Of a stretch of 39,670 nt of DNA, positions 825 through 13,630 are shown one piece after another. The notes under the pieces are model-generated. The model saw nothing but the letters and a program-made list of their open reading frames with translations, made no database searches and had not been told where the DNA came from. The stretch is from UHGV virus genome UHGV-0120812, one strand, 5' to 3'. Position 1 is the first letter of the stretch; every line of letters begins with the position of its first letter. Both the position numbers and the translations under genes were made by a program. Source of the stretch: a virus.

Positions 825-1112
825 TTAGCCACGACCTTCCTCCTTTGGCTTGTGAATTTGTATCGTCATGCCGCTTTGAGTGGTGACTACAATGACAGAA
901 CCAGGCTGAAGGCTGTTAAGATTGAATGCTTCGTAAAACGAATCCAATGCCAGTGCTTTTTTATTCTTTCGGTTCCACCAACGCCATCCCTTGCTACAGG
1001 CTACACTGACAATCCACTGTCCACTCCTGTAAGCCATATAAAACCAGATGAGCAAAACCTGAAGAAATGCTATCCAGTCAATAATCGTATATTTCGCGAA
1101 GGAGTCCATCAC
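825..1112 (-). CDS. Hypothetical small membrane protein
   Basis: 95 aa with hydrophobic N-terminal segment (IIDWIAFLQVLLIWFYMAY); start overlaps the stop of the upstream gene (ATGA), suggesting translational coupling. Confidence 0.4.
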   Translation of the reverse strand: MMDSFAKYTIIDWIAFLQVLLIWFYMAYRSGQWIVSVACSKGWRWWNRKNKKALALDSFYEAFNLNSLQPGSVIVVTTQSGMTIQIHKPKEEGRG

Positions 1113-1606
1113 TTCACCTCCTGCGGCGGCTCCGGTAGCAGCATCCAGTGGGTTACACCGCCAATTGGCTCATCGTCGTCGTACTCCAATGCGGCTATAT
1201 AGAACCCGTCACGACGAGAATAAGAAATCCCTGACATTACAATGCCATCCGAAACAACAATAATGTCACCCGTTTCTTCCGGCATTCGCTCACTACAGCT
1301 TATCCAACCATCCGGAGTTACCGGCACTGGCTTGGCGGTATAAAGCGGTGTTATATCTGCCCGAAAATTACATGCTTTATGCAGCCGCACCCACCGTTCG
1401 ACTTCTGCTTTGTCAGAATACATACCAGTGAACGTGTTATATTCACGGTCAATTTGCGTGAATGTTACCTTCCACGCCACCGGCTCTGCTTCCAGCGATG
1501 CCAGTGCGATTTCATAAGCCCGACGCTCAATATTGTCTCGCACGTCCAGGCTGCCGATTCGCTCTTTGATTTCTTTAATCAGTTCTTTGTCGGTTAAAGT
1601 GGTCAT
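1109..1606 (-). CDS. DUF551-like phage protein
   Basis: 165 aa; C-terminal GGVTHWMLLPEPPQ matches the WMPLPEPP signature I associate with DUF551 proteins of lambdoid early-left regions. Confidence 0.7.
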   Translation of the reverse strand: MTTLTDKELIKEIKERIGSLDVRDNIERRAYEIALASLEAEPVAWKVTFTQIDREYNTFTGMYSDKAEVERWVRLHKACNFRADITPLYTAKPVPVTPDGWISCSERMPEETGDIIVVSDGIVMSGISYSRRDGFYIAALEYDDDEPIGGVTHWMLLPEPPQEVK

Positions 1607-1812
1607 TTGTTAATCCTCAAAACTTTATGCCCGGGCGCAAAAGCACGCGTTTTGTCTTTGCTTATTCGCCAGCCATCTTTGCGCGCCTCTTTTGCACAGC
1701 CAGCCCATGACGTACCGATATACTCACCGAAGTCTGGCGTTTGATATTTACCATTTGTACACTGGCGACAATCACAGTAGAGATGCATGGTGTAACTTGC
1801 GGCAATAGCCAT
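1603..1812 (-). CDS. Hypothetical Cys-rich small protein
   Basis: ORF-track ORF 1603..1863; internal start MAIAASYTMHLYCDCRQC... at 1812 preferred because the upstream ORF stops 1 nt before it. Start uncertain. Confidence 0.45.
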   Translation of the reverse strand: MAIAASYTMHLYCDCRQCTNGKYQTPDFGEYIGTSWAGCAKEARKDGWRISKDKTRAFAPGHKVLRINK

Positions 1813-1813
1813 A

Positions 1814-2002
1814 TCAGGCTCCTTTAGTGCGTAAGTGGTTTTTCCAGCGGTTTTGCGCCGCACTGGGCTTTTTGCAACAACTGTGCCCCATAACCCCGCA
1901 ACACCCCGTCAACCTCACTCGTCTGTTACTAATCCTCAACCATCGCCAGACCCCAACACCGTTTCTGCGAGCTAACAGAATCTTTGCCTTACGGTTTTTC
2001 AT
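1814..2002 (-). CDS. Hypothetical small basic protein (doubtful)
   Basis: 62 aa R/W-rich ORF, stop abutting the next start; composition looks atypical and it may be non-coding. Confidence 0.2.
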   Translation of the reverse strand: MKNRKAKILLARRNGVGVWRWLRISNRRVRLTGCCGVMGHSCCKKPSAAQNRWKNHLRTKGA

Positions 2003-2174
2003 CGCTTTGCTCTCCTGCGTTTCTTTGCTGCTCGTCGTGCCGCTGCAATACCAGTATGGCGGCGCTTTGGTGCCGGGATGATGTTGTCAGCCATCAGGAC
2101 ATGTGGCTTTGCAATTAGCGCAGAAGCCCAAAAACGAGTCGGGTACGGTAACAAGCCGATACATGCCACACGCA

Positions 2175-6682: not shown

Positions 6683-7306
6683 CTATGCGGCCTCGGAAGG
6701 AAGTCCAATCATCTTATTCAAATCTTCTACCCGTAAAGCAGGAAGTGCTGTACTTGCTTTATCTGCTTCTTTTGGTAGCAACTCTTTGCTTTCAGGCCAA
6801 ACCTCAATAAGTCGCTTAACTGTTGTGACTGAGTTTAAAGCAGCCCATACATTTGATTCGATATCCTTTTTCTTTGCTTCAAGTTTTTGTTGTAATGAGC
6901 AGATTTCATCAAACCTTTTTGTTATTTCGTGCTCTGCGTCAAACATGCATTTATCTTTTGTCGGAGTAGGGAGCAATATATCTTCGCCGTTGCCGTCTTT
7001 CCCATATGAATGCCAGCCAACCCTTCTTCCAGATACAGTCAGATAAATCGAAGTAGAACGAACATCGCATGAGTAAAATGAACATCCCATCTTCTCAAGT
7101 TCTTCACTTATAGCTGCTAACTTGGATGATAACCGATCCACTTCCTCAGTTTTCTTTTTACCGCCAAACGCAATAACTCTGGCGTCAAGTGCAAGCTGGT
7201 TCTTTAACTTTGTTACTTCTTCAAGCTCAGTGAAAACCCCAGACTTAATTAAAGCGTTACGAGCGATTTCCTCTTTCATTCTCGTAGTTAAGCGGATTGA
7301 TGACAT
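6683..7306 (-). CDS. Hypothetical protein (207 aa)
   Basis: Start chosen at MSSIRLTTRMKEEI... (GAGG RBS about 8 nt upstream) rather than the ORF-track start at 7321; coiled-coil-rich; AT-rich. Confidence 0.55.
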   Translation of the reverse strand: MSSIRLTTRMKEEIARNALIKSGVFTELEEVTKLKNQLALDARVIAFGGKKKTEEVDRLSSKLAAISEELEKMGCSFYSCDVRSTSIYLTVSGRRVGWHSYGKDGNGEDILLPTPTKDKCMFDAEHEITKRFDEICSLQQKLEAKKKDIESNVWAALNSVTTVKRLIEVWPESKELLPKEADKASTALPALRVEDLNKMIGLPSEAA

Positions 7307-7342
7307 ATTAATTCCTCTCAAATAAGAAAATAAAGGCCACCA

Positions 7343-7602: not shown

Positions 7603-7929
7603 TCAAATAAGTGGTTTGCTGCCTAATTTCATTTTCTGGCGACCAACACAAGTCACACCCATTTCACTACGTGGCTTGCTGTACCATGTGCGCTGATTCT
7701 TGCGCTCAATACGTTGCAGGTTGCTTTCAATCTGTTCGTGGTATTCAGCCAGCACCGTAAGGTCTATCGGATTCAGTGCGCTTTCTACTCGTGATTTCGG
7801 TTTGCGATTCAGCGAGAGAATAGGGCGGTTAACTGGTTTTGCGCTTACCCCAACCAACAGGGGATTTGCTGCTTTCCATTGAGCCTGTTTCTCTGCGCGA
7901 CGTTCGCGGCGGCGTGTTTGTGCATCCAT
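7603..7929 (-). CDS. N: Antitermination protein N
   Basis: MDAQTRRRERRAEKQAQWKAANPLLVGVSAKPVNRPILSLNRKPKSRVESALNPIDLTVLAEYH... matches lambda N (arginine-rich motif), with a divergent C-terminus. Confidence 0.92.
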   Translation of the reverse strand: MDAQTRRRERRAEKQAQWKAANPLLVGVSAKPVNRPILSLNRKPKSRVESALNPIDLTVLAEYHEQIESNLQRIERKNQRTWYSKPRSEMGVTCVGRQKMKLGSKPLI

Positions 7930-8125
7930 CTGGATTCTCCTGTCAGTTAGCTTTGGTGATTGGATGGCCGGCGCTGAACCCCGGCTTACTGGTTAGAGCG
8001 CCCGCACTACCAGTGACGCTGTCTTGAGGCGCAGATTGGTTACTGCTTGCCATGAGCGCTGTTTATACATTGGTCGAGCATCAGCCTGCTCATTCATCCA
8101 ATCCCAAAGCCTTCTGCTTTGAATG

Positions 8126-8158
8126 CTGCCCTTCTTCAGGGCTTAATTTTTAAGAGCC
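8126..8158 (-). promoter_or_regulatory. nutL (boxA plus boxB hairpin)
   Basis: Minus-strand reading gives GCTCTTAAAAATTAA followed by GCCCTGAAGAAGGGC, the lambda nutL boxA/boxB arrangement. Confidence 0.8.
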
Positions 8159-8197
8159 TCACCTTCATGGTGGTCAGTGCGTCCTGCTGATGTGCTT

Positions 8198-8260
8198 AGT
8201 ATCACCGCCAGTGGTATTTATGTCAACACCGCCAGAGATAATTTATCACCGCAGATGGTT
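8198..8260 (-). promoter_or_regulatory. pL promoter with oL1-oL2-oL3 operators
   Basis: 17-mers TATCACCGCCAGTGGTA, CAACACCGCCAGAGATA, TATCACCGCAGATGGTT; minus-strand -35 TTGACA and -10 GATACT. Confidence 0.85.
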
Positions 8261-8418
8261 ATCTGTATGTTTTTTATATAGATTTATTTTTTGCAGGGTT
8301 GTGTGGATTGAAGGTGATCGAGAGATCTGAATTGCGATGTTTAGTGAGTTGTATCTATTAATTTTGAAATAAATACAATTGGTTATGCGTTTTTTGGGGG
8401 GGGGCGTTAGGCAAAGAA

Positions 8419-8443
8419 AACCCGGCGCTGAGGCCGGGTTGTG
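8419..8443. terminator. Bidirectional hairpin terminator downstream of the cI operon
   Basis: AAAACCCGGCGCTGAGGCCGGGTT: GC stem flanked by A-run and T-run; lies 9 nt past the stop at 8453. Confidence 0.7.
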
Positions 8444-8452
8444 AGGAATTAA

Positions 8453-8638
8453 TTACAGAGCAAAGAGATCATGCATTAGGTTGCTGTTCATCTGGTGGTT
8501 GAATTGATACGGCTCCAATTCCTTCTTGATCTCGTTCAGGTGTTGTTCCGCTTTTTTTGCCAGATCGTGACCTTCTTGGATCTGGCTTTCCAACATCTTG
8601 TTGAGAATTTCCATCTCCGGTTGCAGATTCTTCGGCAT
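8453..8638 (-). CDS. Hypothetical small helical protein, overlapping the 3' end of the peptidase-like ORF in another frame
   Basis: 61 aa from internal ATG (AGGA RBS about 8 nt upstream): MPKNLQPEMEILNKMLESQIQEGHDLAKKAEQHLNEIKKELEPYQFNHQMNSNLMHDLFAL; composition more protein-like than the overlapping frame. Confidence 0.4.
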   Translation of the reverse strand: MPKNLQPEMEILNKMLESQIQEGHDLAKKAEQHLNEIKKELEPYQFNHQMNSNLMHDLFAL

Positions 8639-9470
8639 TAGCTTTTTCCTCTTTTTGTAGATACGTTGTACAATCAATAACCCTCGGCTTTCCAAATGTT
8701 GGAATGTCACCATTATGAATTTTGTCACAGAAAAGATTATAGAGTATTTCTGTTATACCTTTAGGATGCTCAACACACTTGAAAAGTTCCTTGGCTTCTT
8801 TTCTGTCGATAACAAATCCATGTGAAGGATATGAGGCTATTAGTTTGCCTAACGCCCCTTCTTTTAGGCTGCTTGGTTTGTCTGCTAATCGTTGGCCATA
8901 AGTGATAGCTATACTCATTGCGCGCTGATGTTCACCAAGCTTTATTGGATCTATCTGTGCGGCCATAGGTGCTATCAACGCTTCTGTAAGTCTGGTCGCG
9001 ATATCAGCAGACATTTTGGTACTTATCTGATTTTCGTATCTTATCTTAACAAGGTGTGAGTTAAACGCTGAAATAGAGCGTTCCTTTAGAGCATCAAGAG
9101 CTGTCATGATAGCTAAACCAGAACTCATCTCACCTATTTCATCGTTTTTTTTCAGTTGGATATCTAATGGCCCAAGCTCCCCCATGTCACCAATAACAAG
9201 TTTATTGGCTGCTATAGCTATTAGTGTACCAGCACTTTTGCATGGTCCAACAACTAAAAGTGTTACCGTTTCATAATGGTGCTGTAGAGCTCTACCTATA
9301 CGATAACCTGCATTTGGATCACCGCCATAAGTAGCAACACAGAAGATAACATTCTCTTTTAATCCATGTTGTGACTTACGTTTCTTGATTTCATTGGTGA
9401 GATCAAGATAACCATCACGATGAATATCGCCTGTATACACATAAACATCATGATTTTCAATAGAATTCAT
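8469..9470 (-). CDS. Clp-fold (ClpP/SppA/SDH-like) serine peptidase-like protein in the rexAB position; 3' end uncertain
   Basis: 333 aa ORF co-oriented with cI, 115 nt downstream of it; motifs VIFCVATYGGDPNAGYRIGRAL and VVGPCKSAGTLIAIAANKLVIGDMGELGPLD resemble the Clp-protease fold; last ~55 residues are low-complexity. Confidence 0.65.
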   Translation of the reverse strand: MNSIENHDVYVYTGDIHRDGYLDLTNEIKKRKSQHGLKENVIFCVATYGGDPNAGYRIGRALQHHYETVTLLVVGPCKSAGTLIAIAANKLVIGDMGELGPLDIQLKKNDEIGEMSSGLAIMTALDALKERSISAFNSHLVKIRYENQISTKMSADIATRLTEALIAPMAAQIDPIKLGEHQRAMSIAITYGQRLADKPSSLKEGALGKLIASYPSHGFVIDRKEAKELFKCVEHPKGITEILYNLFCDKIHNGDIPTFGKPRVIDCTTYLQKEEKANAEESATGDGNSQQDVGKPDPRRSRSGKKSGTTPERDQEGIGAVSIQPPDEQQPNA

Positions 9471-9585
9471 TCGTTAAACTCCCTGCTGTGGTTACGATGA
9501 ATGTATTCATGTTGAAGCTAAGCCATAGCGGCTTGTCATCATCACCAATCTGGCGGAATTGACTGTTCATAAATCACAATTGGAA

Positions 9586-10302
<717 letters not shown>

Positions 10303-11309: not shown

Positions 11310-12257
11310 ATGAGCAATACAGCAAAAATCTACGATTTCAGCGCCGCACACGAGCGCAGGAGCAACAGGATGGAGAACCAGAAAACTGGTTACATTCCGT
11401 TGTACCGGAGCATTCTGAAACAGTCATGGGCGAAAGATGTTTATCTTCGCACCCTGTGGGAAAACCTTCTCCTGAATGCCGCCAGAAAGCCATACAAAGC
11501 GAATTTCAAAGGTCATGAATGGCATCTGCAACCCGGTCAACTGGTTGTGACAGCAGCTGATTTAGGTCTTCAGTTATGCGACAGACATGGCAAGCCAGCA
11601 AGCCGTGATCAGGTTGAGCGGATGCTTCAGGTTTTTGTGAAAGAGGGGATGATCTCCATTGATGGAGAGAAGCAAAAAGGTCGTGTGATAACCATCACAA
11701 ATTACCATGAATATGCTCAAAAAATGGACGATTTACCCGCACATGAAGCCGCACAAACAACCGCACATGATGCCGCACATGATGAAGCCAGCAATGGCGC
11801 GGCTTTCAGCGTACATGCCGCACATGAAAGCGCACATGAAGCCGCACAAACAACCGCACATCATGAACAAGAAGGTATTAACAAGAATATAAATAATACC
11901 CCCCTACCCCCCAATGGGGGAGGCGATGGGCAGGTTAAACCTGAACGTCGCAAGGCAGAACGAATCGACTACGAATCCTTCCTGAACGCCTACAACACCG
12001 AAGTCGGTGACAGACTGCCACACGCTGTTGCGGTCAACGAGAAACGCAAACGCCGCCTGAAGAAAATCATCCCGCAACTGAAAACGCCAAACGTGGACGG
12101 TTTCAGGGCGTATGTCAGGGCGTTTGTGCATCAGGCCAAGCCGTTTTACTTCGGAGACAACGACACGGGCTGGACGGCAGATTTTGATTACCTGCTGAGG
12201 GAAGATTCGTTAACGGGAGTTCGGGAAGGGAAGTTTGCAGACAGGGGGATTGCATGA
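11310..12257 (+). CDS. Replication initiator (O-like / P22 gene 18-like)
   Basis: 315 aa at the O position, followed by the helicase gene; central repetitive [10 protein letters not shown] segments encoded by iteron-like DNA repeats. Confidence 0.75.
11737..11865. repeat. Iteron-like direct repeats inside the initiator gene (candidate replication origin)
   Basis: At least five copies of CGCACATGA(A/T) within about 130 bp, plus GCCGCACAAACAACCGCACAT twice. Confidence 0.6.
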
Positions 12258-13630
12258 GACAGGATATCGAAGCTAGCGTTATCGGTGGCCTGCTGATTGG
12301 TGGATTAACTCCAACCGCCAGTGACGTTCTGGCAACGCTGGAGCCGGAAGCGTTTTCAATTCCGCTCTACCGGAAAGCCTTCGAGGTTATTCGCAAGCAG
12401 GCGAGAAACAGAAACCTAATCGATGCGCTGATGGTTGCCGAGGCGTGCGGAGAGGAGCATTTCACGTCAATCCTGATGACCAGCAAAAACTGCCCGAGTG
12501 CCGCAAACCTGAAGGGATATGCCGGAATGGTCGCGGATAACTATCACCGCCGTCTGGTGCTGGAAATCATGGATGAAATGCGTGAACCAATTCAGAGCGG
12601 AACCATCGACGCATCGAGTCAGGCGATGGACGAGCTTGTAAAGCGTCTTTCAGCCATCAGAAAGCCCCGTGACGAGGTTAAACCTGTACGGTTAGGGGAA
12701 ATCATTACTGACTACACTGACACGCTTGACAGGCGTCTGAGGAACGGAGAAGAGTCCGATACCCTGAAGACCGGAATCGAAGAACTTGATGCCATCACCG
12801 GAGGGATGAACGCAGAAGACCTGGTGATTATCGCCGCTCGTCCTGGTATGGGGAAAACCGAACTGGCTCTGAAGATTGCCGAAGGCGTGGCAAGCCGCGT
12901 TATTCCTGGTTCTGACGTCCGGCGCGGGGTATTGATTTTCTCGATGGAAATGAGCGCATTGCAGATTGCAGAGCGAAGCATTGCCAACGCCGGGAGGATG
13001 TCGGTTAGCGTACTGCGAAATCCTGCATCGATGGATGACGAAGGCTGGGCGCGTGTTGCTAACGGCATGAGTCAGCTTGCAGATTTGGATGTATGGGTAG
13101 TCGATGCCTCGCGGTTATCGGTCGAAGAAATACGCTCAATCGCAGAACGGCACAAACAGGAAAATCCAAACCTGTCACTCATCATGGCGGATTATCTTGG
13201 CCTGATTGAGAAGCCGAAAGCAGATCGCAACGACCTCGCAATTGCTCACATCTCAGGAAGCCTGAAGGCGATGGCGAAAGACCTGAAAACACCGGTTATC
13301 TCCCTGAGTCAGCTTTCACGCGATGTTGAGAAGCGACCAAACAAACGCCCGACAAACGCAGATTTGCGTGATTCAGGAAGCATTGAACAGGACGCAGACT
13401 CAATCATCATGCTCTATCGGGAAGCGGTATATGACGAGAACAGTAGCGCCGCGCCATTTGCTGAAATCATCGTGACGAAAAACCGTTTTGGCTCGCTTGG
13501 TACGGTTTACCAGCGGTTCTGCAACGGACACTTTGTTGCATGTGACCAGGATGAAGCCAGACAGATTTGCACAACATCAAATGCACCCGCTGCACGTGGC
13601 AGACGATATGCACAAGGGGCTGACGTATGA
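12254..13630 (+). CDS. DnaB-family replicative helicase (P22 gene 12-like)
   Basis: 458 aa; Walker [18 protein letters not shown] and DnaB-like C-terminal domain; start overlaps the initiator stop. Confidence 0.88.

Follow-up and report, generated by a model that had tools for sequence, protein, structure and literature searches.

A predicted Clp-fold serine protease and a conserved overlapping partner gene take the place of rexAB in a lambda-type immunity region

The rexAB slot of phage lambda is the textbook lysogen-expressed exclusion locus; of its two products, RexA acts as a DNA-binding sensor and RexB resides in the membrane. Type II toxin-antitoxin modules provide a second familiar two-gene arrangement, in which a toxic protein is neutralized by a co-encoded labile protein that usually binds DNA as well. 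Here, we describe the occupant of the corresponding slot in UHGV virus genome UHGV-0120812, a stretch of 39,670 nucleotides that we refer to in its entirety as the window. In place of rexA-rexB, this DNA carries a cassette of two genes, one encoding a predicted Clp-fold serine protease and the other a small protein read from an overlapping frame. An earlier, sequence-only reading of the window had singled out this cassette, and we report below how its proposals fared.

The cassette resembles lambda RexA-RexB in its placement between the cI stop codon and the tIMM terminator, in its flanks of 92-98% DNA identity, and in comprising two genes on the cI strand that are presumably expressed from the PRM promoter. 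In contrast to the Rex pair, with which it has no sequence or fold relationship, it encodes a predicted soluble Clp-fold protease and a hydrophilic protein of 61 aa. BstA and other repressor-adjacent prophage defenses are likewise prophage-borne and located downstream of a repressor; however, BstA is not homologous to either cassette protein, and its function is experimentally supported, whereas the cassette is known from sequence alone. Another point of comparison is ietAS, which pairs a subtilisin-like protease with an AAA ATPase (as summarized in PMC13069673). Like the cassette, ietAS has a serine protease as presumed effector and a second protein controlling the protease, but the protease fold and the partner differ, and no PADLOC sequence match connects the two systems. 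The cassette and its immediate borders consist of the following features:

8441-9589, minus strand: swapped cargo segment, the equivalent of lambda rexA-rexB, delimited by blastn boundaries and by the annotation of lambda, HK542, and ev099.
8469-9470, minus strand: SDH-type Clp-fold serine protease, 333 aa, assigned by profile matches, structure model, and PGAP name.
8453-8638, minus strand: small partner gene encoding a hydrophilic protein of 61 aa, read in the +1 frame with respect to the protease gene, supported by ORF (open reading frame) conservation and substitution periodicity.
8647-8651, minus strand: Shine-Dalgarno sequence of the small gene, GAGGA, 8 nt upstream of its ATG and inside the protease coding sequence, read from the sequence.
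9471-9585, minus strand: spacer of 115 nt between cI and the protease gene, which moves with the cassette and is kept behind three unrelated repressors.
9586-10299, minus strand: cI repressor of the lambda immunity type, 237 aa, with HTH_3 and Peptidase_S24 domains (ORF list, profile matches).
8419-8440, minus strand: intrinsic terminator at the lambda tIMM position, forming the left edge of the swapped cargo (terminator scan, fold compared with shuffles).

Alignment to lambda, HK542, and ev099 by blastn defines the limits of the cargo. The cI/OR/cro side of the window (9585/9590-10700) is 98% identical to these phages at the DNA level, confirming the lambda-type immunity region seen in the sequence-only reading, and the pL/oL/terminator side (8103-8440/8451) is 92-96% identical; the interval between the cI stop and the terminator matches none of the three. 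The left homology boundary falls at 8440-8451. Since the cI stop codon and the terminator stem are the exact points at which homology ends, the segment 8441-9589 represents swapped cargo, and these alignments identify it as an exact replacement in the rexAB slot, the position that had been proposed. The description of this position as a variable accessory site also stands, as imm-lambda flanks elsewhere enclose rexA-rexB (lambda and SfI), two hypothetical genes (HK542), or an NYN-domain gene (ev099). Neither cassette protein has a significant match to RexA or RexB in PADLOC, while the lambda proteins used as controls match their own models at 9e-110 and 9e-61, in agreement with the earlier statement that the cargo is unrelated to Rex. 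The other occupants are of interest in their own right: the ev099 gene (1039-1896, minus strand) encodes an NYN-domain protein with a weak match to PADLOC HEC-09 (2e-4), and the HK542 genes (1064-2115, minus strand) encode hypothetical proteins of 206 and 144 aa with no PADLOC match. We consider both to be further candidates for lysogen-expressed functions.

A Clp fold had been proposed for the 333-residue protein, and this assignment is upheld by profile searches that are weak but consistent and by structural comparisons that are strong. Pfam matches include SDH_protease (PF01972; 4.4e-7, 29.6 bits against a cutoff of 31.3), CLP_protease (1.3e-3, 19.0 bits against 20.2), and NfeD1b_N (1.1e-3), and the NCBIfam equivalog NF047768 (Clp_like_SDH) aligns to residues 43-114 only (3e-9, 36.7 bits against a cutoff of 250). 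A PF01972 match is precomputed for most homologs, and phrog_21683, a family of unknown function, matches over the full length (8e-185). In an AlphaFold model derived from 45 homologs (mean predicted local distance difference test score 79), the protein adopts a Clp-type alpha/beta fold in which a beta-strand leads into a helix with the nucleophile serine at its N-terminus, the arrangement of the ClpP/crotonase fold. Foldseek searches against viral models rank giant-virus "serine dehydrogenase proteinases" first, with 230-285 aligned columns. The folded core extends over approximately residues 1-283; the remainder, residues 284-333, is a disordered tail shared with the small gene region (scores below 50 at residues 284-332). 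Because the protein falls below the Pfam cutoff and far below that of the NCBIfam equivalog, we assign it to a divergent branch of the SDH-type family. The sequence-only reading had not recognized it as a described defense system, but the protein as such is a recognized one: WP_001084325.1 is labeled "SDH family Clp fold serine proteinase" by NCBI's PGAP pipeline, and its family comprises 1574 proteins at E ≤ 1e-3 from many phyla.

To define conserved residues, we used a set of 142 non-identical homologs of at least 250 codons; the protease gene itself was located in 178 loci from E. coli genomes, GTDB species representatives, and IMG/VR contigs. Three residues stand out as candidate catalytic positions:

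9236-9234, minus strand: Ser79, candidate triad residue, conserved in 100% of the 142 homologs.
9164-9162, minus strand: Asp103, candidate triad residue, conserved in 100%.
8822-8820, minus strand: His217, candidate triad residue, conserved in 99%.

Ser79 had been put forward as the candidate nucleophile, and rightly so: it is placed on the ClpP nucleophile in the profile alignment and is invariant. The expectation of a Ser-Lys or Ser-His dyad was not realized. Conservation elsewhere in the protein is high at Cys77 (100%) and Lys78 (99%) and lower at His64 (72%) and His181 (37%), and Asp103 lies 24 residues past Ser79, where ClpP has a histidine (about 25 past its serine). This conservation, together with an invariant Asp at the position of the ClpP His, makes a Ser79-Asp103-His217 triad the most likely catalytic set. 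In the PF01972 family definition, the catalytic residues are Ser, Asp, and His in sequence order; the invariant residues found here follow the same order, fitting the "S-D-H" of the family name.

The SDH-type proteinases (PF01972; NF047768) thus offer the best sequence-family match and the same residue order, yet the window protease is divergent from them, and neither a small downstream partner nor placement in a prophage immunity slot was found described for that family. It differs from ClpP (S14) in its subthreshold CLP_protease score, in having Asp103 at the position of the ClpP His, and in its invariant His at 217. Compared with SppA and other S49 peptidases and with the NfeD protease 1510-N, it has no S49 match in Pfam, no evident membrane anchor, and no Ser-Lys dyad. 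We also considered a head-maturation protease and dropped this assignment: NF045542 scores 34.4 bits against a cutoff of 120, head-protease PHROGs match at 4e-7 or weaker, and the gene is part of the immunity region rather than of a head-assembly cluster. These weak ClpP-related matches had raised the idea of a "rogue" head-maturation protease that sabotages capsid assembly, which was abandoned as a leading idea because the top viral structural matches are giant-virus SDH proteinases and not head proteases.

What is new about this locus is most firmly supported for the hidden, conserved partner gene, within a protease family previously known by name only. The ORF at 8453-8638 had been suggested as a possible partner, and its case is now much stronger, as it is conserved and subject to purifying selection in its own frame. 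It begins with an ATG at 8638, shares protease codons 278-333 (the final 56), and terminates 16 nt past the protease stop. A Met-initiated +1 peptide of at least 40 residues is found in 134 of the 142 homologs, across bacterial phyla, with a median of 62.5 residues. In almost all, a stop-free +1 stretch crosses the 3′ end of the protease gene, with an ATG yielding approximately 55-75 codons. In the +2 frame, which lacks an ATG, the open stretch is typically limited to approximately 5-30 codons. The small ORF of most homologs ends between just before the protease stop and about 250 nt past it, such that it is almost fully overlapped in some and mostly downstream of a shorter, ~290-aa protease in others.

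Substitution periodicity provides the most direct evidence for the small gene. We aligned 11 genes (77-100% protein identity) as DNA without a guide and obtained the following mean pairwise differences at the protease codon positions:

Protease core: position 1, 0.119; position 2, 0.067; position 3, 0.486.
Overlap: position 1, 0.344; position 2, 0.196; position 3, 0.170.

The core pattern is normal, whereas in the overlap the wobble position of the +1 frame is the most variable (0.344) and that of the protease the least (0.170). Five other clades (cyanobacteria, Proteus/Rahnella, and three mixed) behave alike, with the +1 wobble most variable and the protease wobble lowest or nearly so, although these alignments were guided by the +1 peptides and carry some bias. 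Selection in the alternative frame is thereby detectable across homologs, as in an overlapping gene pair. At the level of nucleotide substitution, these patterns demonstrate purifying selection on the small gene in the +1 frame and mark 8453-8638 as a real gene. By the same measure, residues 284-333 of the protease show no selection in their own frame, and we read the disordered tail as overprinted read-on sequence. The 333-aa ORF is present and co-oriented with cI as first described, but its last ~50 residues are disordered in the model and not selected as protease sequence.

Comparisons of the encoded peptides and of their start sites agree with this result. A jackhmmer search from the window small protein returned only 24 relatives; because these proteins diverge too fast for such searches, we clustered them all against all. 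The +1 peptides yielded 787 significant pairwise matches, versus 3 to reversed decoys and 456 among frame-0 tails, and the cluster containing the window peptide takes in Bartonella. An AGAGGA-like motif lies at the same distance from the small-gene start in divergent homologs, and Shine-Dalgarno-like motifs accompany 49% of small-gene start sites versus 16% of background, despite imperfect start-codon choice. The length of the ORF itself is not relied upon, as shuffling codons revealed that the composition of the tail already disfavors +1 stops (median open frame 59.5 codons observed versus ~30 shuffled, with 26% of genes individually significant); this moderately informative test was replaced by that of substitution periodicity. 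The small protein has no recognizable domain in Pfam, DNA-binding and antitoxin domains included. Public records occasionally list the exact 61-residue sequence as a "hypothetical protein," and PGAP leaves the small ORF unannotated at an identical locus.

Within E. coli, the cassette has moved between immunity regions. Across eight loci, the protease genes share 89-100% identity, yet the repressors preceding them are of three types with 24-26% identity to lambda cI. At L002, L003, L100, L101, and L102, a 27-nt piece of the lambda cI 3′ end (CAGTGGCCTGAAGAGACGTTTGGGTAA, equivalent to window 9586-9612) persists past the stop codon of the resident repressor. By its sequence, this remnant is a recombination scar, and its position behind non-lambda repressors indicates that the cassette left an imm-lambda setting together with its 115-nt leader. 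It is rare: of 5426 complete E. coli genomes, only 28 (0.5%) contain it. A protein search found it in only two GenBank phage records, and relatives occur in 91 IMG/VR stretches.

The 115-nt spacer separating cI from the co-oriented protease ORF contains the protease Shine-Dalgarno sequence (GGGAG, 9483-9479). Promoter and terminator scans detected no such site within it, and its predicted fold is not unusual (z = −0.44). As no Rfam family attains its gathering score at any point of the 39.7-kb window, we rejected the notion that the spacer holds its own promoter or a riboswitch-like element. Downstream of the cassette, the hairpin at 8440-8419 folds more stably than its shuffles (z = −2.8). 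Given a spacer free of terminators or unusual structure and a significant terminator after the cassette, co-transcription with cI, presumably the first gene of the PRM transcript, can reasonably be inferred from position, and the cassette would then constitute a lysogen-expressed cargo module in the immunity slot. A 37-codon ORF in the spacer (9457-9570, minus strand) that overlaps the protease start was examined as a third gene and rejected, since differences between 90%-identical copies (the window and L003) are mostly non-synonymous in an alignment judged by eye; it is probably non-coding. At the corresponding place, a Klebsiella phage has an annotated ORF of 71 aa.

Beyond E. coli, the arrangement recurs most clearly in viral contigs. 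Among IMG/VR loci, 31 of 75 distinct upstream ORFs contain Peptidase_S24 and 22 contain HTH_3; these repressor genes are usually co-oriented with the protease across gaps of 50-170 nt, including at loci whose protease shares only 41-55% identity with that of the window. Bartonella has the same repressor-protease arrangement, and in Rac-like prophages of Klebsiella the protease directly follows a small CI-type repressor, ahead of YdaE/RecE/RecT genes. A P2-like Burkholderia phage has the protease adjoining its integrase. The link to prophage cI or S24 genes extends to other viral contigs. Many homologs are unlinked to prophage immunity regions, which in part corresponds to an outcome that the sequence-only reading had named as counting against its proposal. 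Relatives are encoded in 99 stretches of species-representative genomes from many phyla. Several cyanobacterial loci (L063, L064, L066, L072, L075, L079, L080, and L087) contain the protease and small-ORF pair, five with a ~320-aa gene downstream, and Mastigocoleus testarum has two copies on different contigs.

The strong matches in a PADLOC scan of 125 large neighbors include BstA (two), ZorD/DpdE, BilD, capP, and PDC-S02. In Gilliamella sp. Pas-s25 (L021, 3660-7729), an S24 repressor, the protease module, and BstA stand in tandem on one strand, with a full-length BstA (E 6.7e-117) 0.9 kb downstream of the module. Pseudomonas sp. TH15 (L045) has a BstA-like gene directly downstream of the protease.

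Further features of the window flank the slot:

8198-8226, minus strand: pL promoter (TTGACA, 17 nt, GATACT) with oL operators, the start of the N operon and outside the cassette (promoter scan, lambda homology across 8103-8440).
7603-7929, minus strand: antitermination protein N, which borders the slot on its downstream side (PGAP annotation of an identical locus).

That identical locus is in E. coli WWCOL-236, where PGAP annotates, in order, N, the protease WP_001084325.1, a LexA-family protein (cI), Cro, and CII. Immediately after the terminator, a C-run/A-run at 8405-8418 (gcccccccccaaaaaa) varies in length and sequence among otherwise near-identical loci, possibly as a homopolymer that is hypervariable or as the junction of a recombination event. 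A 212-aa ORF (6683-7321, minus strand), located between N and the recombination genes, represents another accessory gene of the prophage; in the identical E. coli locus, PGAP names it "Nmad5 family putative nucleotide modification protein." A replication protein and a DnaB-type replicative helicase of 458 aa (11310-13630, plus strand) are present instead of lambda O/P, and the nin region includes a PAPS-reductase-family gene. The source phage is a mosaic lambdoid phage and not lambda proper.

Comparison of homologous loci establishes the structure of the cassette, its conservation, its mobility between immunity regions, and its invariant active-site residues; from its position and neighbors, we infer an anti-phage function. 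The explanation we favor, which we hold to be quite possible while stopping short of calling it probable, is that the protease and its partner form a lysogen-expressed module that excludes other phages. It draws on the slot swap, co-orientation with cI, mobility, the link to S24 repressors, the BstA neighbors, the intact active site, and the selected partner gene. In the lysogen, both genes would be read through from PRM together with cI, and transcription would stop at the tIMM-like terminator. The resulting exclusion or abortive-infection module would benefit the lysogen, with the small protein either restraining the protease or directing its specificity. In our preferred version, the small protein would be a labile inhibitor or pseudo-substrate that must be synthesized continuously; infection by another phage would free the protease, which would cleave a phage or host protein and so stop the infection. 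The pseudo-substrate idea was suggested by the slightly hydrophobic C-terminus of the small protein, whose last four residues are enriched in hydrophobic residues (0.46-0.56 versus 0.35 overall), with SppA, the C-terminus of which binds its own active site (PDB 4kwb), as a precedent.

Several observations weigh against an exclusion function. The labile-inhibitor or pseudo-substrate role is pure speculation, and we think it rather unlikely. PADLOC-DB 2.0.0 contains no family matching the protease, and the small ORF matches only PDC-M64B at E 0.023. Searches of full-text literature, with incomplete coverage of E. coli prophage defense, found no functional study of the protease family; a published description elsewhere cannot be excluded. 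In species-representative genomes, Peptidase_S24 was detected in only 7 of the 95 upstream ORFs scanned (75 loci), and most neighbors are ordinary metabolic genes. The protease is a lone chromosomal gene in Neisseria and Mannheimia, and heterocystous cyanobacteria keep it at a conserved position, with a class II tRNA synthetase gene upstream in six loci, a placement that looks vertically inherited, unlike that of defense cargo. Finally, the enrichment of defense genes among neighbors is modest and lacks a matched control, and is suggestive at best.

Other explanations account for part of these data. The cassette might be an addiction or toxin-antitoxin-like module in which the protease and small partner penalize loss of the prophage or island, with no anti-phage role. 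The tight two-gene architecture, translational overlap, and small hydrophilic partner would fit such a module, as would the sparse, horizontally moved distribution and the isolated insertions outside prophages in Neisseria and Mannheimia. We nevertheless judge it quite unlikely, given that the small protein has no antitoxin or DNA-binding domain recognizable in Pfam, that gene order and sizes are atypical of type II modules, and that the conserved cyanobacterial position speaks against a purely selfish element. Addiction also overlaps with exclusion, since many toxin-antitoxin modules act in defense too. A role as an accessory of the lysogeny switch, with the protease acting on CII, Cro, N, O, or cleaved repressor fragments to tune maintenance or induction, is likewise improbable. 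It is consistent with recurrence immediately after S24 repressor genes in widely differing temperate phages, with presumed co-transcription with cI, and with the parallel of RexA, the usual occupant of the slot, which has been reported to favor the lytic state in the lambda switch (PMC11077077). However, the cassette passes between three unrelated immunity types without co-varying with them, is also found without a nearby repressor, and is lacking from most imm-lambda phages.

We assign a similarly low probability to an ordinary cellular protease that serves in regulation or quality control, has a small cofactor or substrate, and occasionally travels as a prophage passenger. Its very patchy occurrence (0.5% of E. 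coli genomes), the 91 viral-contig matches that lie repeatedly in lysogen-expressed cargo slots, and the adjoining BstA genes are difficult to reconcile with this explanation; the breadth of the family across phyla (1574 matches and 99 species-representative stretches) and its mostly housekeeping neighbors favor it, and it stays alive because of the cyanobacterial synteny and the many non-phage contexts. A single-gene alternative, that the system consists of the 333-aa protein alone, with the small ORF a by-product of a purine-rich tail, strikes us as scarcely credible. Shuffled tail codons do give ~30 stop-free +1 codons, and PGAP annotates the protease alone; yet periodicity follows the +1 frame in the overlap (0.170 versus 0.344) with a normal core and five other clades alike, the ORF is present in 134 of 142 homologs, including ones mostly downstream of the protease stop, +1 peptides exceed both decoys and frame-0 tails in pairwise matches (787 versus 3 and 456), and the Shine-Dalgarno sequence is conserved. 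Returning to the exclusion module, a bolder generalization is that the pair is a previously undescribed, phylum-spanning two-component conflict system, with a protease effector of abortive infection or exclusion held in check by a small labile protein and placed behind the repressors of temperate phages; we regard this extension as doubtful.

The window provides a clean natural swap of rexAB cargo for an unrelated protease module. If this module is defensive, its family and effector type, a Clp-fold Ser-Asp-His protease, would be ones absent from PADLOC-DB 2.0.0. Regardless of function, a large protease family annotated as single genes turns out to be a conserved gene pair, the second member of which is hidden in an alternative frame and was missed in the inspected annotations of these loci, save for occasional "hypothetical protein" records. 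The gene pair and its hidden frame bear on genome annotation and on future studies of PF01972. Should the conflict-system interpretation be true, it would provide the first biological role for part of this uncharacterized family.

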